Assembly: GCA_019429055.1 (NCBI GenBank)
Contig: JAHYJP010000002.1
Coordinates: 1-58,700 of the forward strand
Length of the DNA stretch: 58,700 nucleotides
Direction: 5' to 3'
From: Bacteroidales bacterium
Lineage (GTDB): Bacteria; Bacteroidota; Bacteroidia; Bacteroidales; UBA7960
Shown piece by piece: positions 2,302 to 21,608 of the stretch; within the stretch, counting starts at the first letter, position 1; every line of letters starts with the position of its first letter. The position numbers and the translations under genes are program-made. The notes beneath the pieces are model-generated. The model saw nothing but the letters and a program-made list of their open reading frames with translations. It had not been told where the DNA came from and ran no database searches.

Positions 2302-3465
2302 CTACTTCCGCGGCGCCACAAACTGCTTCATCCCTGCCATCATAAAAGGTATGACAGGTACGCTGTTACGTATTTTGAATTCCTCCCAGAAGGTGCTTTC
2401 ATTGGTCAGAAAAGCAAGTATCCTTTCGGGATCTACTTTGCCAAACAGGCCGGAAAAGATCTGTTCGCCGGTCAATTTGCCTGAAAGAAGCACTTCCAGC
2501 AGGGTCATATCGTACCAGTAAAACATTCTTTCTCGTAATGAGGGTTTGATGACAGGAGATTGTCCGTTTTTTAACCGCTCAGCAACCTGCAAAAGATGTT
2601 TCTGCACAAACTGAAAGGTATAACCGCTGCTGGGCTTGGTAAAACCACCCGCTGTTCCAATATTGATGATCCGGTTGCCTGGACCCAGGTATCTTTTGAA
2701 GCGGGCCATGGTCATGGGTATTACGCCAAATTCGCTGTGGGTGATTTCATAATCGTCTATTTTCAATTCATCCTGAATATATTTTTTCAGTTCCCTGATA
2801 TATTCTTCTTCCTTCAGGGTTTTTTCGCTGAAGAGCGTATATTCTACCAATGCATCGTTTGGGCTGGTGGGGAGTACATACATGAATGTGGCCCCATACT
2901 GCTGGTTCAATCTGAAATCCATCAAAGTACCCACGTTACTGTCAAAAACAGGTGCTGGGGTTTTGATATACCAACCCATAAAGTGCTGAAGCAGGGTGTT
3001 TGTTTCATCCATCTTCGGATGAAATAAACCTGTGGAATTAAAGACATATTCTGATGTAAAAACGCCAGTCTCTGTCTTTACTTCTGCTGTCTGGCCATTG
3101 TCATTGATCTCCAGGATCTTTTCATTGCTGAAGACCACATTGTCAAACTGTTCAGCCAGTTCCAGCAAATGAGCATAAAAATCGCCCGACTGGATCATTT
3201 TATAACGGTAATGTTTCAACTCAAATTCCCGGGAAACATCATGGGAATAAAACTGAAGGGTTTTCCACTGATGACGGACCAGATGTTCAAAAGGCCCCTG
3301 TTCCTTTTCCCAGAAACACCAGGTGCGGTCATTGTCCTTCTTTTTTGCAGGGTCAATAATCAGGATGTTTTTGTTTTTTAAATGGTCATCCCTGAGCAAA
3401 TGGTACAACAAACTCAAACCTGCCAGTCCGGAACCTGCAATGATGTAATCAAAATCTTTTTTCAT
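2302..3465 (-). CDS. crtY: Lycopene cyclase family FAD-dependent protein
   Basis: N-terminal DYIIAGSGLAGL dinucleotide motif, NDRTWCFW, LQHFMGW, LMDFR, FMYVLP, E-x-GVIPM and GTAGG..KPSSGY, typical of Bacteroidota CrtY. Confidence 0.85.
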   Translation of the reverse strand: MKKDFDYIIAGSGLAGLSLLYHLLRDDHLKNKNILIIDPAKKKDNDRTWCFWEKEQGPFEHLVRHQWKTLQFYSHDVSREFELKHYRYKMIQSGDFYAHLLELAEQFDNVVFSNEKILEINDNGQTAEVKTETGVFTSEYVFNSTGLFHPKMDETNTLLQHFMGWYIKTPAPVFDSNVGTLMDFRLNQQYGATFMYVLPTSPNDALVEYTLFSEKTLKEEEYIRELKKYIQDELKIDDYEITHSEFGVIPMTMARFKRYLGPGNRIINIGTAGGFTKPSSGYTFQFVQKHLLQVAERLKNGQSPVIKPSLRERMFYWYDMTLLEVLLSGKLTGEQIFSGLFGKVDPERILAFLTNESTFWEEFKIRNSVPVIPFMMAGMKQFVAPRK

Positions 3466-3592
3466 CTGTTTATAATTTGATTAATTCGGTCAGATGGAGC
3501 TCGCCAACAATAAACATAATAAGTGTATTTCTTTAATGCGAATTTGAAATCATCCAAGTGTGTGTTAAAATAATTCTCATGGCTCGGTTCAT
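3458..3592 (-). repeat. Dispersed ~136-bp structured element, copy A (candidate ncRNA or mobile-element leader)
   Basis: Minus-strand blocks ATGAACCGAGCCATGA, ACACACAC, GGATGATT, TATTGTTGGCGAGCTCCATCTGACCGAATTAA and AAATTATAAACAGATGAAAAA are identical to 13331-13467; the final ATG is the crtY start. Confidence 0.9.
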
Positions 3593-3843
3593 GTATTTTC
3601 CCGGGTTTTTCAGCTGCCTGTTTCAGATAATTTCTTAACCGGTTAGAACTAAGTAATTATTATACCGGCAGATTGTAAAATAATTGCAAGTAAGAAGTTA
3701 AAAACAATGAATTTGTTCGAAGAACAGTTGATAAAAATAATAAATTGTCTATTTGATGTAAGCCGGTAAGGCCATTTTTGGCTGGATTGATTATAACATC
3801 CCGGGTAAGAGAACTGATTTCATTTCTTTCGCTGCGAAATCTT

Positions 3844-8175: not shown

Positions 8176-9588
8176 ATGAAGAAGATTATAACAACAACCT
8201 TTCTGCTTTTCGTTTTTCTTGCTTTAAAAGCTCCGGCGCAGGAAGTGTTAACCCTTGAAAGAAGCCGGCAAATGGCCCTGAATCACAACGAAGACCTGAG
8301 AATAGCCCGCATGCAGATTGACAAGGCACAGGAAGAACGCGCTGCAGCACGCACCTTTCGTCTTCCGGCATTTTCAGTATCCGGCACCGGAATATACCAG
8401 GACCAGGATTTTGACATGGAACTGATTTTGCCTACACAGGTGCCTGATCCTGCCACCGGCGAACTTGTTCCCAACTTCATGCTGCATCCTGTAACAGGCG
8501 AGCCCGTAATTGGTCCTGACGGAAATCCGGTGTTCAACATGTATGGCTGGTTACCGCTGGAAGTAAGTCTGAATGGGGCATACATTGTGGGTTTGAATAT
8601 GGAACAACCCCTTTATACCGGAGGAAAGATCAATGCAGGTAACAGGATGGCAGATATTGGTCTGAATATGGCCCATGATAATCTGAGCCTGCAGCGTATG
8701 AATACCATACTTGCTACCGATCACGCCTACTGGACCTTTATCTCAGTTACCGAACAGGTGAAACTCGCAGAACAGGCTGTGGAGATGCTTGAAGAATTTG
8801 TGCAACTGGCCCGTAACAGCTATGAAGTAGGTCTTACCAGTCGAAATGACCTGCTGAAAGCACAGGTGGAGTACAACAATGCAAAGCTCAATCTGCAGAA
8901 AGCCAGAAACGGCCTTGAGCTCAGTCGCATGCAACTTTGCAGGGTTACCGGATTGCCCTTTGATATGCAGATTATTGCTGCTGACACGCTTATTGATACG
9001 AGCCAACCTGTCACGGATGCCCTTGAAAAAATCAACCTTCACCAACGGCCCGATTACCGGTTGCTGGAGCATAATATCAGAATGAGCGAACAGAACATAA
9101 GAATGGCCAGAGCTGAATTTCTGCCTGCAGCAGGCTTTCAGGCAGGGTACACCCACATTGGTGGTGTGGAATTCAGCGGCACAGAATTTTCCAATACAAG
9201 CCTGAATGTAATAGGTTCGGTAAAAATTCCTTTATTTCATTGGGGTCAGGGGGTAAGGAAGATCAGGTCGGCGCGCATTGATATGGAAATGAGAGAGATT
9301 GAACTGGAGAAAAACAGGCAGTTAATGCAATTGGAAGCCGAACAGGCCCGTCTGAATCTGTTACTGGCCTGGGAGCGAATCCAAATGAATGAAAATGCAC
9401 TGGAACAGGCCAAAGAAAACCTTCGCATGAGCCGCGACAATTATGAAGTGGGTGCCGAAACCATAACCGACCTGCTTATGGCACAAACCCAGTGGCAACA
9501 GGCTTACAGCGAACTTATCAGTGCCAGAACTGGCTTCAGGATCACGGAATCAGAATGGCTCAAAGCCACAGGTAAACTGGTGGAATAA
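8176..9588 (+). CDS. TolC family outer membrane efflux protein
   Basis: Signal peptide, LTLE....AL..N, QPLYTGG, YEVG.....DLL repeated twice; follows the RND permease. Confidence 0.92.
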   Translation: MKKIITTTFLLFVFLALKAPAQEVLTLERSRQMALNHNEDLRIARMQIDKAQEERAAARTFRLPAFSVSGTGIYQDQDFDMELILPTQVPDPATGELVPNFMLHPVTGEPVIGPDGNPVFNMYGWLPLEVSLNGAYIVGLNMEQPLYTGGKINAGNRMADIGLNMAHDNLSLQRMNTILATDHAYWTFISVTEQVKLAEQAVEMLEEFVQLARNSYEVGLTSRNDLLKAQVEYNNAKLNLQKARNGLELSRMQLCRVTGLPFDMQIIAADTLIDTSQPVTDALEKINLHQRPDYRLLEHNIRMSEQNIRMARAEFLPAAGFQAGYTHIGGVEFSGTEFSNTSLNVIGSVKIPLFHWGQGVRKIRSARIDMEMREIELEKNRQLMQLEAEQARLNLLLAWERIQMNENALEQAKENLRMSRDNYEVGAETITDLLMAQTQWQQAYSELISARTGFRITESEWLKATGKLVE

Positions 9589-11490: not shown

Positions 11491-13290
11491 CTACTTCTTC
11501 ATTCTCTTTCTCTCATGCTCATCCAGGATGATCTTGCGCATACGGATGTGTGCAGGTGTGAATTCAACGTATTCATCTTCAGCAATATATTCCAGTGCTT
11601 CTTCCATGGAAAACTTGATGGCAGGTGCAAATGATGCCTTGTCATCAGAACCGGCAGCTCTCACGTTGCTGAGCTTTTTGGTTTTGGTAAGATTTACAAC
11701 CAGGTCTTCCTGTTTGTTGTTTTCACCAATTACCTGGCCCGTATAGATCTCTTCGCCAGGATCCACGAAGAATTTTCCGCGGTCCTGAAGTTTGTCGATG
11801 GAGTAGGCGATGGCGGTTCCGGTTTCCATGGCTATGATGGCCCCGTTGCGGCGGCGCGTAAAATCGCCCTTGTAAGGCTCAAACCCTTTCAGTCGGTGTG
11901 CCATAACGGCTTCACCTTCTGTTGATGTGAGCATGTTGCTTCGCATTCCTATCAATCCCCTCGAAGGGATCTCAAATTCAAGGTGGGTGCGGTCATTCTT
12001 TTGTTCCATATTAACCAGGTCGCCCTTGCGCTGCGATACCATTTCAATTACTTTACCCGAAAATTGCTCAGGAACATGTACGGTAAGGTATTCAACGGGT
12101 TCATATTTCTTACCATCAATTTCTTTAAAGATCACCCGGGGCTGTCCCACCTGCAGTTCGTAACCTTCGCGGCGCATGGTTTCAATGAGGATGGAAAGGT
12201 GCAATACTCCACGTCCGAAAACCTGGTAAGAATCAGCCGAATTGGTCGGTTCTACACGCATGGCCAGGTTTTTTTCCGTTTCAAGATAGAGGCGATCGCG
12301 CAGGTGGCGTGAAGTAACGAATTTACCATCCCGGCCAAAGAAAGGGGAGTTGTTGATGGTAAACTGCATACTCATGGTGGGCTCATCAATAGAAATGGGA
12401 AGCATTCCTTCGGGAACTTCAAAATCGGCAATGGTATCGCCAATCTCAAAGTCTTCCATACCCAGCACCGCACATATTTCACCTGATTGTATTTCTGTTT
12501 TGATCTTTTCCTTACCCAGTCCTTCAAAAGTATACAGCTCCTTGATCTTTGATTTTTTAACCGTTCCGTCTCTTTTTACCAGCGAAACCTGCTGATTGGG
12601 AAAGAGTTTGCCACGTGTTAGTCTTCCCACAGCAATCCTGCCCAGATATGAGCTGTAATCGAGAGAAGTGATCTGCATTTGTGTGCTGCCTTCAAACACT
12701 GCAGGTGGCGGAACATGCTCAATTACGATATCAAGCAGATAAGAAACATCCTGGGTGGGATTGTTCCAGTCGGGGCCCATCCAGCCTCCCTTGGCCGATC
12801 CGTAAACCGTGGGAAAATCCAGTTGATCTTCTGTGGCATTGAGGGCAAACATCAGATCAAAAACTTTTTCCTGTGTGAGTTCAGGGTCGCAATTGGGTTT
12901 GTCAACTTTGTTGATCACCACGATGGGCTTTTTATGCAGATCGAGGGCTTTTTCAAGCACGAAGCGGGTCTGGGGCATGGGTCCTTCAAAGGCATCCACG
13001 ATAAGCAGAACACCGTCGGCCATATTCAATACCCTTTCTACTTCACCTCCAAAGTCGGAGTGACCCGGAGTGTCGATGATGTTGATCTTTACGTCATTAT
13101 AACGAACAGAGCAGTTTTTGGCCAGGATGGTGATACCTCGTTCACGTTCCAGGTCGTTACTGTCCATAATCAGGTCCTGTGTTTCCTGGTTGTCGCGGAA
13201 AAGCTTTCCCTGGTGCAGGATGCGGTCAACGAGGGTGGTTTTGCCATGGTCAACATGGGCTATGATGGCGATATTTCGTATATTTAGCAT
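11491..13290 (-). CDS. typA: Translational GTPase TypA/BipA
   Basis: [58 protein letters not shown]; start placed at MLNIRN (13290). Confidence 0.97.
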
Positions 13291-13318
13291 GTTATTTACT
13301 TGTGAAAAAATAAGGGTG

Positions 13319-13326
13319 CAAAGGTA
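13319..13326 (-). promoter_or_regulatory. Bacteroidota -7 promoter element of typA
   Basis: Minus-strand TACCTTTG(CA), about 29 bp upstream of the typA ATG and directly abutting repeat copy B. Confidence 0.6.
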
Positions 13327-13330
13327 CTGC

Positions 13331-13467
13331 TTTTTCATCTGTTTATAATTTTTTTTTAATTCGGTCAGATGGAGCTCGCCAACAATATCCCGATTGTATG
13401 TTTTGTTTGTTGATAAATTATAATCATCCGCGTGTGTGTCAATAGTTTTTGTCATGGCTCGGTTCAT
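13331..13467 (-). repeat. Dispersed ~136-bp structured element, copy B
   Basis: Same conserved blocks, order and spacing as 3458-3592, with different variable segments. Confidence 0.9.
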
Positions 13468-13605
13468 CAGAATAAGTGAGAAGGTTTATTATTACATTTC
13501 AATTCAATTAAGTTTTATATCTTAGGAGTTTGAAAACCTGTGAAAACACCCACAGGTATAATGACAGGAGCAGCATCCGGGATTTAAAGCTTATAAAACA
13601 ATATA

Positions 13606-13929
13606 ATGGAAAAAGCCGAAATCAAAACTCTCATTCATAAGGAGATAGAAAAAACCAGGAATATTATTCAGGAGTACGAAGAACTAACCCGTCCGGTAGC
13701 TCCGGATGTAGCTATAGGCCGGGTTTCGCGTATGGATGCCATTAACAATAAAAGTGTTGTGGAAGCATCACTCCGCCAGGCCCGTGAGAAACTCGACAAA
13801 CTCAATTATGTCCTTGACAGGGTTGATAAACCTGATTTCGGACAATGTGCCCGCTGCGGCAATACCATTCCCCTTGGTCGTATTCTTCTCAAACCGGAAA
13901 GTGTGTATTGTGTAAACTGTGCACTTTAA
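13606..13929 (+). CDS. TraR/DksA C4-type zinc finger protein
   Basis: AIGRVSRMDAINNKSV coiled coil, FGQCARCG..IP..R....PES..CVNC. Confidence 0.9.
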   Translation: MEKAEIKTLIHKEIEKTRNIIQEYEELTRPVAPDVAIGRVSRMDAINNKSVVEASLRQAREKLDKLNYVLDRVDKPDFGQCARCGNTIPLGRILLKPESVYCVNCAL

Positions 13930-21405: not shown

Positions 21406-21571
21406 TATGATAAATATTGTTTTAGAAATGTTAGTGGTAAGAATTGATCAGGCAAAGAAACATTTCTTTCATGTATTAAGCAAATCAAATAATTTTTATC
21501 CATAAAAGGTTATTTGTGGAAGTTTGTTCCGGATTGATTTTCCTTTTGTCAACAAAATGGAAATTAAGGAC

Positions 21572-21608
21572 AAAAAAAAAGAGCACCCGTCTTCTGGATG
21601 CTCTTTTT
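21572..21608 (-). terminator. Intrinsic terminator of ppdK
   Basis: AAAAAGAGCA..TGCTCTTTTT stem with a long T-tract on the minus strand. Confidence 0.8.

Follow-up and report, generated by a model that had tools for sequence, protein, structure and literature searches.

The 58,700-nt stretch of Bacteroidales DNA analyzed here (the window; positions 1 to 58,700 of contig JAHYJP010000002.1, assembly GCA_019429055.1) carries on its minus strand two copies, A and B, of a dispersed repeat of about 131 nt, which is very likely a non-autonomous miniature derivative of an insertion sequence (IS) of the IS110 (bridge-recombinase) family. This assignment follows from the ends and the core that the copies share with full-length IS110 elements and from their direct adjacency to such elements. 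An initial annotation, made from the sequence alone, had listed non-autonomous IS110 derivatives among its options, next to protein-less guide cassettes and a cis-regulatory RNA; its IS110 lead was right, while its choice of programmable segments was not. In what follows, coordinates are window positions, those of both copies and of the neighboring genes refer to the minus strand, and G000 denotes the window's own assembly (382 contigs).

Both stretches read on the minus strand exactly in the block order that had been described. Within the window there are two mismatch-free matches to the 32-nt block (expected number 0.00, based on 100 shuffles), the 16-nt 5′ block also has two exact occurrences, and the two copies are 79% identical over 135 nt (BLAST). 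Scanning the window with the full model and with filters off returned only copy A (121 bits, E = 2e-21) and copy B (111.6 bits) at E ≤ 0.01; a third, weak match at 21471–21578 (E = 0.078) was dismissed as a copy after its sequence had been read. Including the pentamers on both sides, copy A, a member of the long subfamily MITE-1, spans 132 nt (3461–3592) and copy B spans 134 nt (13334–13467). These boundaries are based on family alignments, on the loose ends of foreign copies in metagenome contigs at 3457–3460 and 13467, and on the empty site of copy B described below. Copy A is composed of a 5′ ATGAA (3588–3592), a left-end module (3548–3587) that starts with CCGAGCC and continues with CCATGA, ACACACAC and GGATGATT, an internal 15-nt block (GGCGAGCTCCATCTG, 3491–3505), and a right terminus made of CAG and the 3′ ATGAA (3461–3468). 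The corresponding block of copy B (13366–13380) is identical to that of copy A. Neither copy contains a recombinase open reading frame (ORF) with DEDD_Tnp_IS110 and Transposase_20 domains, and thus neither is an autonomous IS110 element.

The initial annotation had considered just two copies, whereas we found a repeat family with matches in G000 and in all 21 other genomes of the genus. BLAST of copy A against G000 gave further full copies at C175:4413-4543 and at C174:1580-1703, where a contig end truncates the copy, and a partial match on C87; in all, this assembly holds at least four long copies (two on C210, one each on C175 and C174) and six shorter relatives. A covariance model, R1, was built from A1, a MAFFT alignment of 56 copies from five subfamilies, and was run with stricter filters, at most 22 candidates per genome being scored. 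It gave 10 matches in G000, among them the shorter members on C87, C79, C149, C302 and C357, and at E ≤ 1e-3 it matched 30 of 151 evenly sampled genomes of the class, i.e., 25 of 101 genera (29 of 150 genomes without the unpublished G129). Copy A itself has matches at E ≤ 0.01 in 29 of 41 related genomes, including 21 of 21 of the same genus, where full-length matches are 75–94% identical and up to 340 first-look candidates were seen per genome. Many of the matches lie at contig ends, and pairs of matches overlap by exactly 5 nt. In alignments of 28 and then 53 full copies, every copy begins with ATGAA and finishes with ATGAA, while the outside flanks diverge at once. None of the 53 copies has terminal inverted repeats, the ends CCGAGCC and AAACAG not being inverted copies of each other. 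Tandem copies form arrays in which neighbors have one ATGAA in common.

The insertion is polymorphic between genomes that are about 90% alike and within a population that is 98% alike. At the copy B site, the same flanks enclose a single pentamer in four relatives (GTGAA in G020, ATTAA in G002 and G003, ATGAA in G021), and in G000 they enclose a pentamer, 129 nt and a second pentamer. One metagenome population lacks copy B as well: a contig of run X1 has 16 differences to the window over 12569–13339 and diverges at 13339, and contigs of this run show 27 nt resembling the empty site of G020 in place of 13340–13495. The same run also carries copy A (1 difference in 525 nt). Copy B is therefore a precise and recent insertion. 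Copy A is present in G000 and G002 only, and in seven other genomes the orthologues of the cyclase gene that follows it start at the equivalent place without an element. In runs X13, X2 and X10, the summed contig depth rises 5- to 10-fold on the window bins that hold the copies (3268–3651 and 13252–13635), with many loose ends precisely at the element borders, which indicates that many other genomes in those samples carry copies elsewhere.

The kinship with IS110 is visible at both ends: the left 45–60 nt or so, the last 15 nt or so and the ATGAA of the copies match full-length elements whose recombinases have DEDD and Transposase_20 domains. In genome G009 (contig C524), the 3′ ATGAA of a copy is directly followed by an 85-nt leader and then by an IS110 ORF of 415 aa (DEDD_Tnp_IS110, E = 6.9e-25; Transposase_20, E = 1e-22); the right end of this IS, about 175 nt long, finishes in AAACAGATGAA. 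Its leader has CCATGA, ACACACACG and ATGATTAT in the same order as the 5′ half of the copies, and it shares about 45 nt almost exactly with the MITE-2 subfamily of G006, G014 and G002. Carboxylicivirga sp. M1479, an isolate from another order, encodes relatives of the G009 protein and contains an array of MITE-x, MITE-y, IS110, MITE-y and a gene with one ATGAA per joint. MITE-y, 106 nt long, is present in at least 41 full copies in this genome, and no fewer than 8 copies adjoin IS left ends at contig ends. Scanning of metagenome contigs added 80 relatives of the IS110 protein (44–84% identity); in about 25 of these 80 loci the family hidden Markov model matched the segment just before the ORF (E down to 2.5e-8), and further mini-families lie beside the IS in loci L163, L166, L209, L214 and L228. 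IS110 elements thus adjoin copies directly in two genomes and in metagenome contigs. A likeness of the block order to Bacteroidota IS110 leaders, which the initial annotation had pointed out, proved correct, as CCATGA, ACACACACG and GGATGATTAT stand in this order immediately upstream of IS110 ORFs in G009, in Carboxylicivirga and in the said metagenome loci, with ATGAA as the boundary there too.

Not all full-length copies of these elements are intact: the Carboxylicivirga scaffold4 IS110 (L096 1201-2809) is split into frames of 312 and 163 aa, and the copy at L097 80-1380 is frameshifted (330 aa, then stops). Some short contigs with a Bacteroidia-type IS110 (L095, L097, L098) were found in metagenome-assembled genomes (MAGs) labelled Kosmotogaceae, Heimdallarchaeota and Zixiibacteriota, where a mis-binned repeat contig is more likely than real transfer. 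G000 has a related IS110 of its own (C118:6344-7555, loci L082/L087), an intact 418-aa ORF that is 58% identical to the G009 protein; its left end is preceded by ATTATAAATGAA, and about 60 nt past the stop codon the sequence becomes what appears to be another gene on the opposite strand, which suggests that this copy is likely truncated.

The right ends of the parent clade have the look of an RNA-guided system. They hold a conserved scaffold with two sense copies of the motif xxATGAA, which we examined in 33 IS copies parsed by a script. The dinucleotide of the first motif equals the 2 nt to the left of the insertion in 15 of 21 cases and the last dinucleotide of the right end in only 4 of 28. 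Conversely, the dinucleotide of the second motif matches the final 2 nt of the right end in 22 of 28 cases, at least 4 of the 6 misses turning out on inspection by eye to be end-finding errors, and it matches the left flank in 6 of 21. Furthermore, the first motif is followed by the same 2 nt that open the left end in 21 of 21 cases. The left guides of bridge RNAs have top-strand sense and include the core, and in the IS1111 group the bridge RNA is encoded in the right end, according to the respective papers (PMC11208160, PMC11208158 for the former; PMC11208160 for the latter). By analogy, we read the two motifs as the putative left target guide and left donor guide of a bridge RNA. The variable part of this target guide would be short (about 2 nt), which fits a loose target. 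In the genus, 37 upstream flanks that do not belong to element ends have A at −2 in 72% and G at −1 in 51% of cases; for 35 downstream flanks, the share of A is 77% at +1 and 62% at +2.

These observations can be combined into a mechanism modelled on IS621. In this reading, the element consists of the left end of a parent IS (about 50–60 nt), an expendable variable middle, the 15-nt block, which is antisense to the element's own junction, and an A-rich tail that finishes like the right end of the parent. The recombinase and the right-end bridge RNA of a full-length relative would act in trans and excise the copy as a small circle joined at the pentamer; RNA-guided, site-specific recombination of this circle with a genomic ATGAA would then leave one ATGAA on each side. 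Insertions would pile up at start codons, often in arrays, because an A-rich stretch followed by ATGAA and AA is the commonest start context in these bacteria. Since the tail of the element ends in ATGAA, it would rebuild an A-rich leader and a start codon, and the gene could stay expressed.

The general traits of the copies are those of IS110/IS1111 elements with bridge (seek) RNAs, such as IS621: no terminal inverted repeats, a short core at both junctions and site-specific insertion (PMC11208160, PMC11208158, as far as their available text goes). In left-end homology they go with the DEDD and Transposase_20 elements of the parent clade, whose guides covary with the left target and the left donor and which, like the IS1111 group as outlined in the available text, have a long right end and a short left end. 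Unlike the parents, which are about 1.9 kb long, the window copies measure about 130 nt and lack both the recombinase and the guide scaffold; the flanking repeat is 5 nt (ATGAA) instead of the 2-nt CT core given for IS621 in the text at hand, and the target of the parent clade, with about 2 variable nt in its guide, seems to be a very common motif rather than a rare site. The closest described relative is MITEPpu9, the ssr9 module of ISPpu9 from Pseudomonas putida, which is protein-less, flanked by IS110-family end boxes, found beside the IS or alone and sometimes in tandem, and forms minicircles with the transposase, whence it was interpreted as mobilized in trans (PMC12288879, available portion). 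The copies studied here resemble it, as their ends and core are homologous to IS110, they occur solo and beside the IS, sometimes in tandem, in many copies, and they are present or absent between relatives. However, MITEPpu9 is reported to have 8 copies in one strain lineage, to target repetitive extragenic palindromic (REP) sequences and to carry a small RNA gene, whereas members of the superfamily studied here number up to dozens or hundreds in a genome, are spread over 25 of 101 sampled genera of the class, go to ATGAA at start codons and contain the antisense block.

We also considered that the repeat might be a miniature element of another class, either palindrome-associated and moved by an IS200/IS605 Y1 transposase or a DDE-type MITE (miniature inverted-repeat transposable element) with a 5-bp target duplication, which IS110 elements merely use as a target. 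A fixed pentamer, missing terminal inverted repeats and insertion in tandem are compatible with IS200/IS605 behavior and would fit here too, IS110 relatives were found in few genomes of the genus, and REP sequences are an example of repeats reported as IS110 targets (PMC11208160). Nevertheless, this is improbable, because the Y1_Tnp domain (PF01797) turned up in 2 of the 5 genomes tested, the repeat-carrying G000, G004 and G013 being without it, the homology with the IS110 elements themselves covers the left end of about 45–60 nt and the last 15 nt or so with the pentamer and thus goes beyond a mere target site, and the right-end guides of the IS110 elements spell xxATGAA. An IS200/IS605-derived palindrome-associated element was rejected, as Y1 does not track the repeat and the consensus fold has no conserved end hairpins; a classical DDE-derived MITE was rejected on account of the missing terminal inverted repeats in the 53 copies. 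Classical bacterial repeats (Correia/NEMIS, ERIC, RUP, REP/BIME) are palindromes or carry inverted repeats at their termini, and the enzymes that move them are of the DDE or RAYT type. The present family shares with them a size of about 100–150 nt, high copy number, intergenic location and a presumed influence on neighboring genes, and differs in having no inverted termini, a strict orientation relative to the downstream gene and an exact insertion point.

Several points weigh against an origin from IS110. No full-length IS110 with the CCGAGCC left end of MITE-1 was found among 41 relatives, genome contigs and 80 metagenome loci. Of the 22 genomes of the genus, only G000 and G009 yielded relatives of the G009 protein, while the repeat is present in all 21 relatives; the high-copy genomes G004 and G013 have no DEDD domain match whatsoever, these genomes and the genus-wide search being limited to MAGs of 87% completeness, in which multi-copy IS often fail to assemble. 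In addition, the related IS110 of G000 itself (C118) lacks the right-end scaffold.

The most distinctive part of the copies is the internal block. The 32-nt block singled out by the initial annotation contains a 15-nt stretch that is antisense to the joined ends of the element, i.e., to its last 3 nt, the pentamer and the first 6–7 nt (7 in copy A). RNAalifold applied to A1 itself proposed the pairing between the block and the 3′ end as the sole predicted helix (5 bp, −1.79 kcal/mol). Over 8 pairs between the block and the 3′ end (LD3 plus ATG), 85.0% of the cells in A1 are paired, as compared with 10–46% in slid controls; one column pair of this helix is CG in 33 copies, AU in 12 and GC in 8, and the covariation score was reached by 0 of 500 shuffles. 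In A3, a wider alignment of 39 rows that includes 18 genera of the class and four metagenome families, the same pairing amounts to 86.5%, with one pair being CG in 18, GC in 12 and AU in 7 rows and 0 of 37 cells unpaired; A3 was fitted with the model and leans towards this helix, whereas A1 does not. Pairing of the block with the 5′ end reaches 62.1% in A1 and 68.3% in A3 (slid controls, 7–45%), one pair being CG in 27 and UA in 10 cases. When 18 loci from 18 genera were inspected by eye, the 3 nt after the CCAT motif complemented the last 3 nt before the 3′ ATGAA in 17–18 of them, in four types (CAG/CTG, CAC/GTG, CAT/ATG and CGG/CCG).

Some of the data on the block weigh against the overall explanation. 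The 5′ helix has an A·C mismatch in the pentamer, at a core position, in 36 of 38 A3 rows, and a tandem G·A/A·G in 29–30 of 38 (columns 9–10 with 110–111, CGAG or TGAG opposite CGAG or CGAA), the remaining rows forming standard pairs there. The constancy of these non-pairs suggests a recognized shape rather than mere decay. Covariation was counted over sequences, and the number of independent events is perhaps 6–10 subfamilies. Only weak folds are predicted between the block and the junction (three tandem junctions have z values of −4.19, −1.77 and −0.54, and solo copies are near 0); the fold of the junction DNA is significant in only one of the three tandem junctions and is not used as support. 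Finally, the block was absent from 25 full-length IS scanned, the best antisense match reaching 8–10 of 13 even with wobble, which indicates that it was not simply inherited from the known parents. A related arrangement exists in the subterminal inverted repeats (STIRs) of the IS1111 group, which place one arm at the left terminus or close to it and the second some tens of nt into the right end, so that the two flank the donor (PMC11208160). The copies have the same inverted arm placement; in contrast to the STIRs, the inner one of their arms runs antisense to the complete joined junction with its core and the last 3 nt of the right end, and was not detected in the full-length relatives.

Three roles of the block may be envisaged. 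The one we prefer, though only tentatively, is that, within a mini-circle excised in single-stranded form, pairing between block and junction creates a duplex donor site. It would explain why the block is restricted to mini-elements, and it fits a 2026 preprint reporting that IS621 excises mainly a single-stranded circle and needs only recognition by the donor arm. A less probable role is that of a donor guide RNA encoded in cis. Less probable still, the block might act in host mRNA by masking the upstream duplicated AUGAA, and every internal junction of an array, while leaving the last AUG free.

The guide role is part of a broader proposal, namely that the copies are guide cassettes of their own, which produce a small RNA whose block binds the donor, much as the right donor guide does in a bridge RNA, and rely on a recombinase in trans. 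A copy with a new left end would then bring its own matching guide. This proposal refines the derivation from IS110 rather than excluding it, and we consider it rather unlikely. It draws support from the covariation of the block with the start of the left end and with the right-end terminus across subfamilies, and from the left ends themselves: CCGAGCC, ACGAGCC and ACGACC in the subfamilies differ from ACATCC or ACACCC in known IS, so that the guides of a parent would match only partly. The order of GGATGAT, variable hairpin region and antisense block also recalls the left guide, stem-loop and right guide of IS621 as described in the available text of PMC11208160 and PMC11208158, and bins with a MITE show 5- to 10-fold depth in an RNA library, although these are contigs only, possibly derived from DNA, and cannot show transcripts. 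On the other hand, the scaffold with covarying guides that characterizes full-length IS is missing from the copies, no stable consensus fold was obtained, and an Rfam scan of 4 + 6 loci, IS right ends included, returned no relevant match at E ≤ 1. GGATGAT was rejected as a left donor guide, as GG stays before ATGAT while the terminus is CAG, CAT or CAC, without covariation.

Other readings of the internal motifs fared worse. The initial annotation had taken the 11/12-nt and 35/34-nt segments as programmable, unrelated to each other and exchanged in a non-neutral manner. However, the longest word that they share with their own flanks averages 6.59 nt, as compared with 6.80 nt for the flanks of other copies (17 solo copies), and no target guide was found in the copies. 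The segments are alignable within the family, of which they are the least conserved stretches; across the 53 full copies, which range from 125 to 140 nt, they fall into a handful of subtypes, and in the larger alignment they show ordinary subfamily drift, the middle segment being absent altogether from related short families. Likewise, the resemblance to box C/D RNA, whose boxes are RUGAUGA (C) and CUGA (D), did not hold: GGATGAT has no U before GAUGA, and other families have ATGG or GTGG at the position read as CTGA, which covaries with the base immediately preceding the 3′ ATGAA. As a peptide gene, the frame that begins at the 5′ ATG was rejected, since it is not conserved and gives MNRAMT.. 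products of 7–43 aa, MKHP followed by a stop in MITE-2 and IS left ends, and indel-shifted frames elsewhere.

Two further features were seen next to the block. A word similar to TAnnTTTG lies just 5′ of it, TATTGTTG in MITE-1 (3506–3513 on the minus strand of the window) and TAATTTTG in MITE-x (e.g., L108 1705-1799). It could serve as an outward −7 promoter box for the downstream gene, if we assume TAnnTTTG to be the consensus, and it is not conserved class-wide (18 loci from other genera). Moreover, in two unrelated subfamilies a G+C-rich hairpin with the stem TCCCGC..GCGGGA or CCCGAT..ATCGGG stands right after the CCAT of the block. In the genus (L034 1366-1505, L039 1627-1766, L070 4146-4285) it replaces the bases that follow; in Carboxylicivirga it is found in L096 911-1021, L104 223-337, L107 1603-1717, L114 315-429 and L117 1600-1715. 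This hairpin may have been inserted convergently, or it may be a further small mobile module.

The position of the copies relative to genes was then assessed from distinct copies in the loci examined. Another copy or an IS end follows in 17 of 54 cases in the genus and in 29 of 48 in Carboxylicivirga. Where array-terminal copies allowed a judgement, the ATG of the element was the start of an ORF of 100 aa or more in 17 of 32 and 18 of 19, respectively, and such an ORF is found at the ATG of the element in 13 of 18 loci from other genera. By a crude count, G000 has 18,837 ATGAA sites, of which 898 are gene starts, 3,436 lie outside genes and 14,503 inside, so that gene starts make up 898 of 4334 (21%) of the sites outside gene bodies. 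Pfam profiles begin at residues 3–6 of the proteins encoded after copy A and after the C175 copy. The consensus has stops in all three frames within its last 25 nt or so (AATTAA, TTATAA, ATGA) and an A-rich tail, which would let the downstream ATG work. The enrichment at start sites could be due to targeting, as the preferred insertion context resembles start regions, to selection against other sites or to the seeding of arrays, element ends being preferred targets themselves. Two facts count against a strict start-codon preference: 13 of the 32 terminal copies of the genus are not at a long ORF, and one of its 17 hits is copy B, a false positive whose frame reaches typA by chance.

Location just upstream of start codons and in the orientation of the gene is also what one would expect of a conserved leader RNA (riboswitch-like or a translational operator) that acts only in mRNA and was spread by duplication, and the block can pair with the upstream AUGAA or with the start region of the gene, so that the old start might be masked or the new one regulated. 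As an account of what the element primarily is, this idea is largely refuted, and we regard it as very improbable. The downstream genes are unrelated (lycopene cyclase, RpiB, a response regulator, lipoproteins, a LOG-like protein and others) and share no constant family or pathway, which also disposes of the cis-regulatory RNA of a gene set proposed initially. The polymorphic insertion, the tandem arrays, the direct fusion to IS110 genes and the absence of an Rfam match are equally at odds with a leader RNA, as is copy B, which lies not in a leader but upstream of a putative promoter box.

In the window, the ATG in the right terminus of copy A (3463–3465) is the start codon of a lycopene cyclase family gene of 387 aa that lies otherwise outside the element (2302–3465; PF05834, E = 4.2e-59, residues 6–375 on profile positions 1–376), the Lycopene_cycl profile beginning at residue 6 of the protein read from this ATG. 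The 5′ ATGAA of the copy occupies the place of the start codon before the insertion, where orthologues without the element start, and now opens a short frame that stops inside the element after 19 aa. Copy B, by contrast, is not at a start codon. Its right flank, AAAGCAGTACCTTTGCACCC (13311–13333), is kept in relatives and contains TACCTTTG, which fits what we take to be the Bacteroidetes −7 promoter consensus, TAnnTTTG. The typA gene (Pfam GTP_EFTU and BipA_C) starts 40 nt farther along, at 13290, and the GTP_EFTU profile begins at residue 3 of the product starting there; copy B thus sits upstream of the putative promoter box of typA. The ORF of 658 aa at 11491–13467 is an artefact, as copy B is open and in frame with typA by chance.

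Apart from these copies, other arrangements at the same pentamer were noted. At one site on C87 of G000 (9217-9313, L005) there is a 97-nt element whose 3′ part is that of MITE-1 and whose 5′ part is different (left end ATGTCC, with a matching block GGGCAT), and at the orthologous gene (MKEKKK.., L031) G007 carries MITE-1 in full length. One subfamily seems to have replaced the other at this site, or to have recombined with it. A repeat of about 200 nt that starts right after ATGAA (AGGTGCTGGTAAAGCAGCAAGGCGAGCGGGG and variants) adjoins three copies in G016, on C18 (L070, after 4019 and 6362) and C103 (L060, after 3012), and may be a different element using the same pentamer. In Carboxylicivirga, a common stretch of about 100 nt ending in AATTAATTAGAGTAT precedes five MITE-y copies, always at contig ends (L109, L116, L119, L123 and L127), and is probably the right end of another multi-copy element abutting ATGAA.

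In the available text of the literature searched, supplementary tables (which may list the IS clade) aside, neither high-copy mini-elements derived from IS110 nor start-codon targeting nor a junction-antisense block were found described; MITEPpu9 was the only small IS110-associated MITE described there, and one 2026 preprint, judging by its accessible part, analyzed only intergenic sequences flanked by recombinases. Taking all the above together, we hypothesize, with less confidence than even odds would imply, that recombinase-less IS110 mini-elements occur class-wide and rely on two undescribed tricks: (i) an antisense copy of their own junction, which would serve as duplex donor or self-encoded guide, and (ii) homing to start codons with a minimal guide, by which leader and start codon would be rebuilt.

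The family accounts for frequent contig breaks and mis-called start codons in Bacteroidia, such as the spurious 658-aa frame over typA, and automatic annotation could mis-call starts wherever a copy has no stop in the respective frame. Bridge recombinases are being engineered as programmable tools for DNA insertion, and natural elements of about 90–130 nt, if mobilized in trans to copy numbers between dozens and hundreds, would show what a minimal donor for such an enzyme looks like; the junction-antisense block with its constant mismatches is a candidate for the cis features that make a mini-donor efficient. An element placed systematically between promoter and start codon makes its effect on translation directly testable in organisms without Shine-Dalgarno recognition. 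If both tricks are real, subfamilies with new ends would stay mobile without a matching parent, and hundreds of insertions per genome between promoters and genes may rewire expression.

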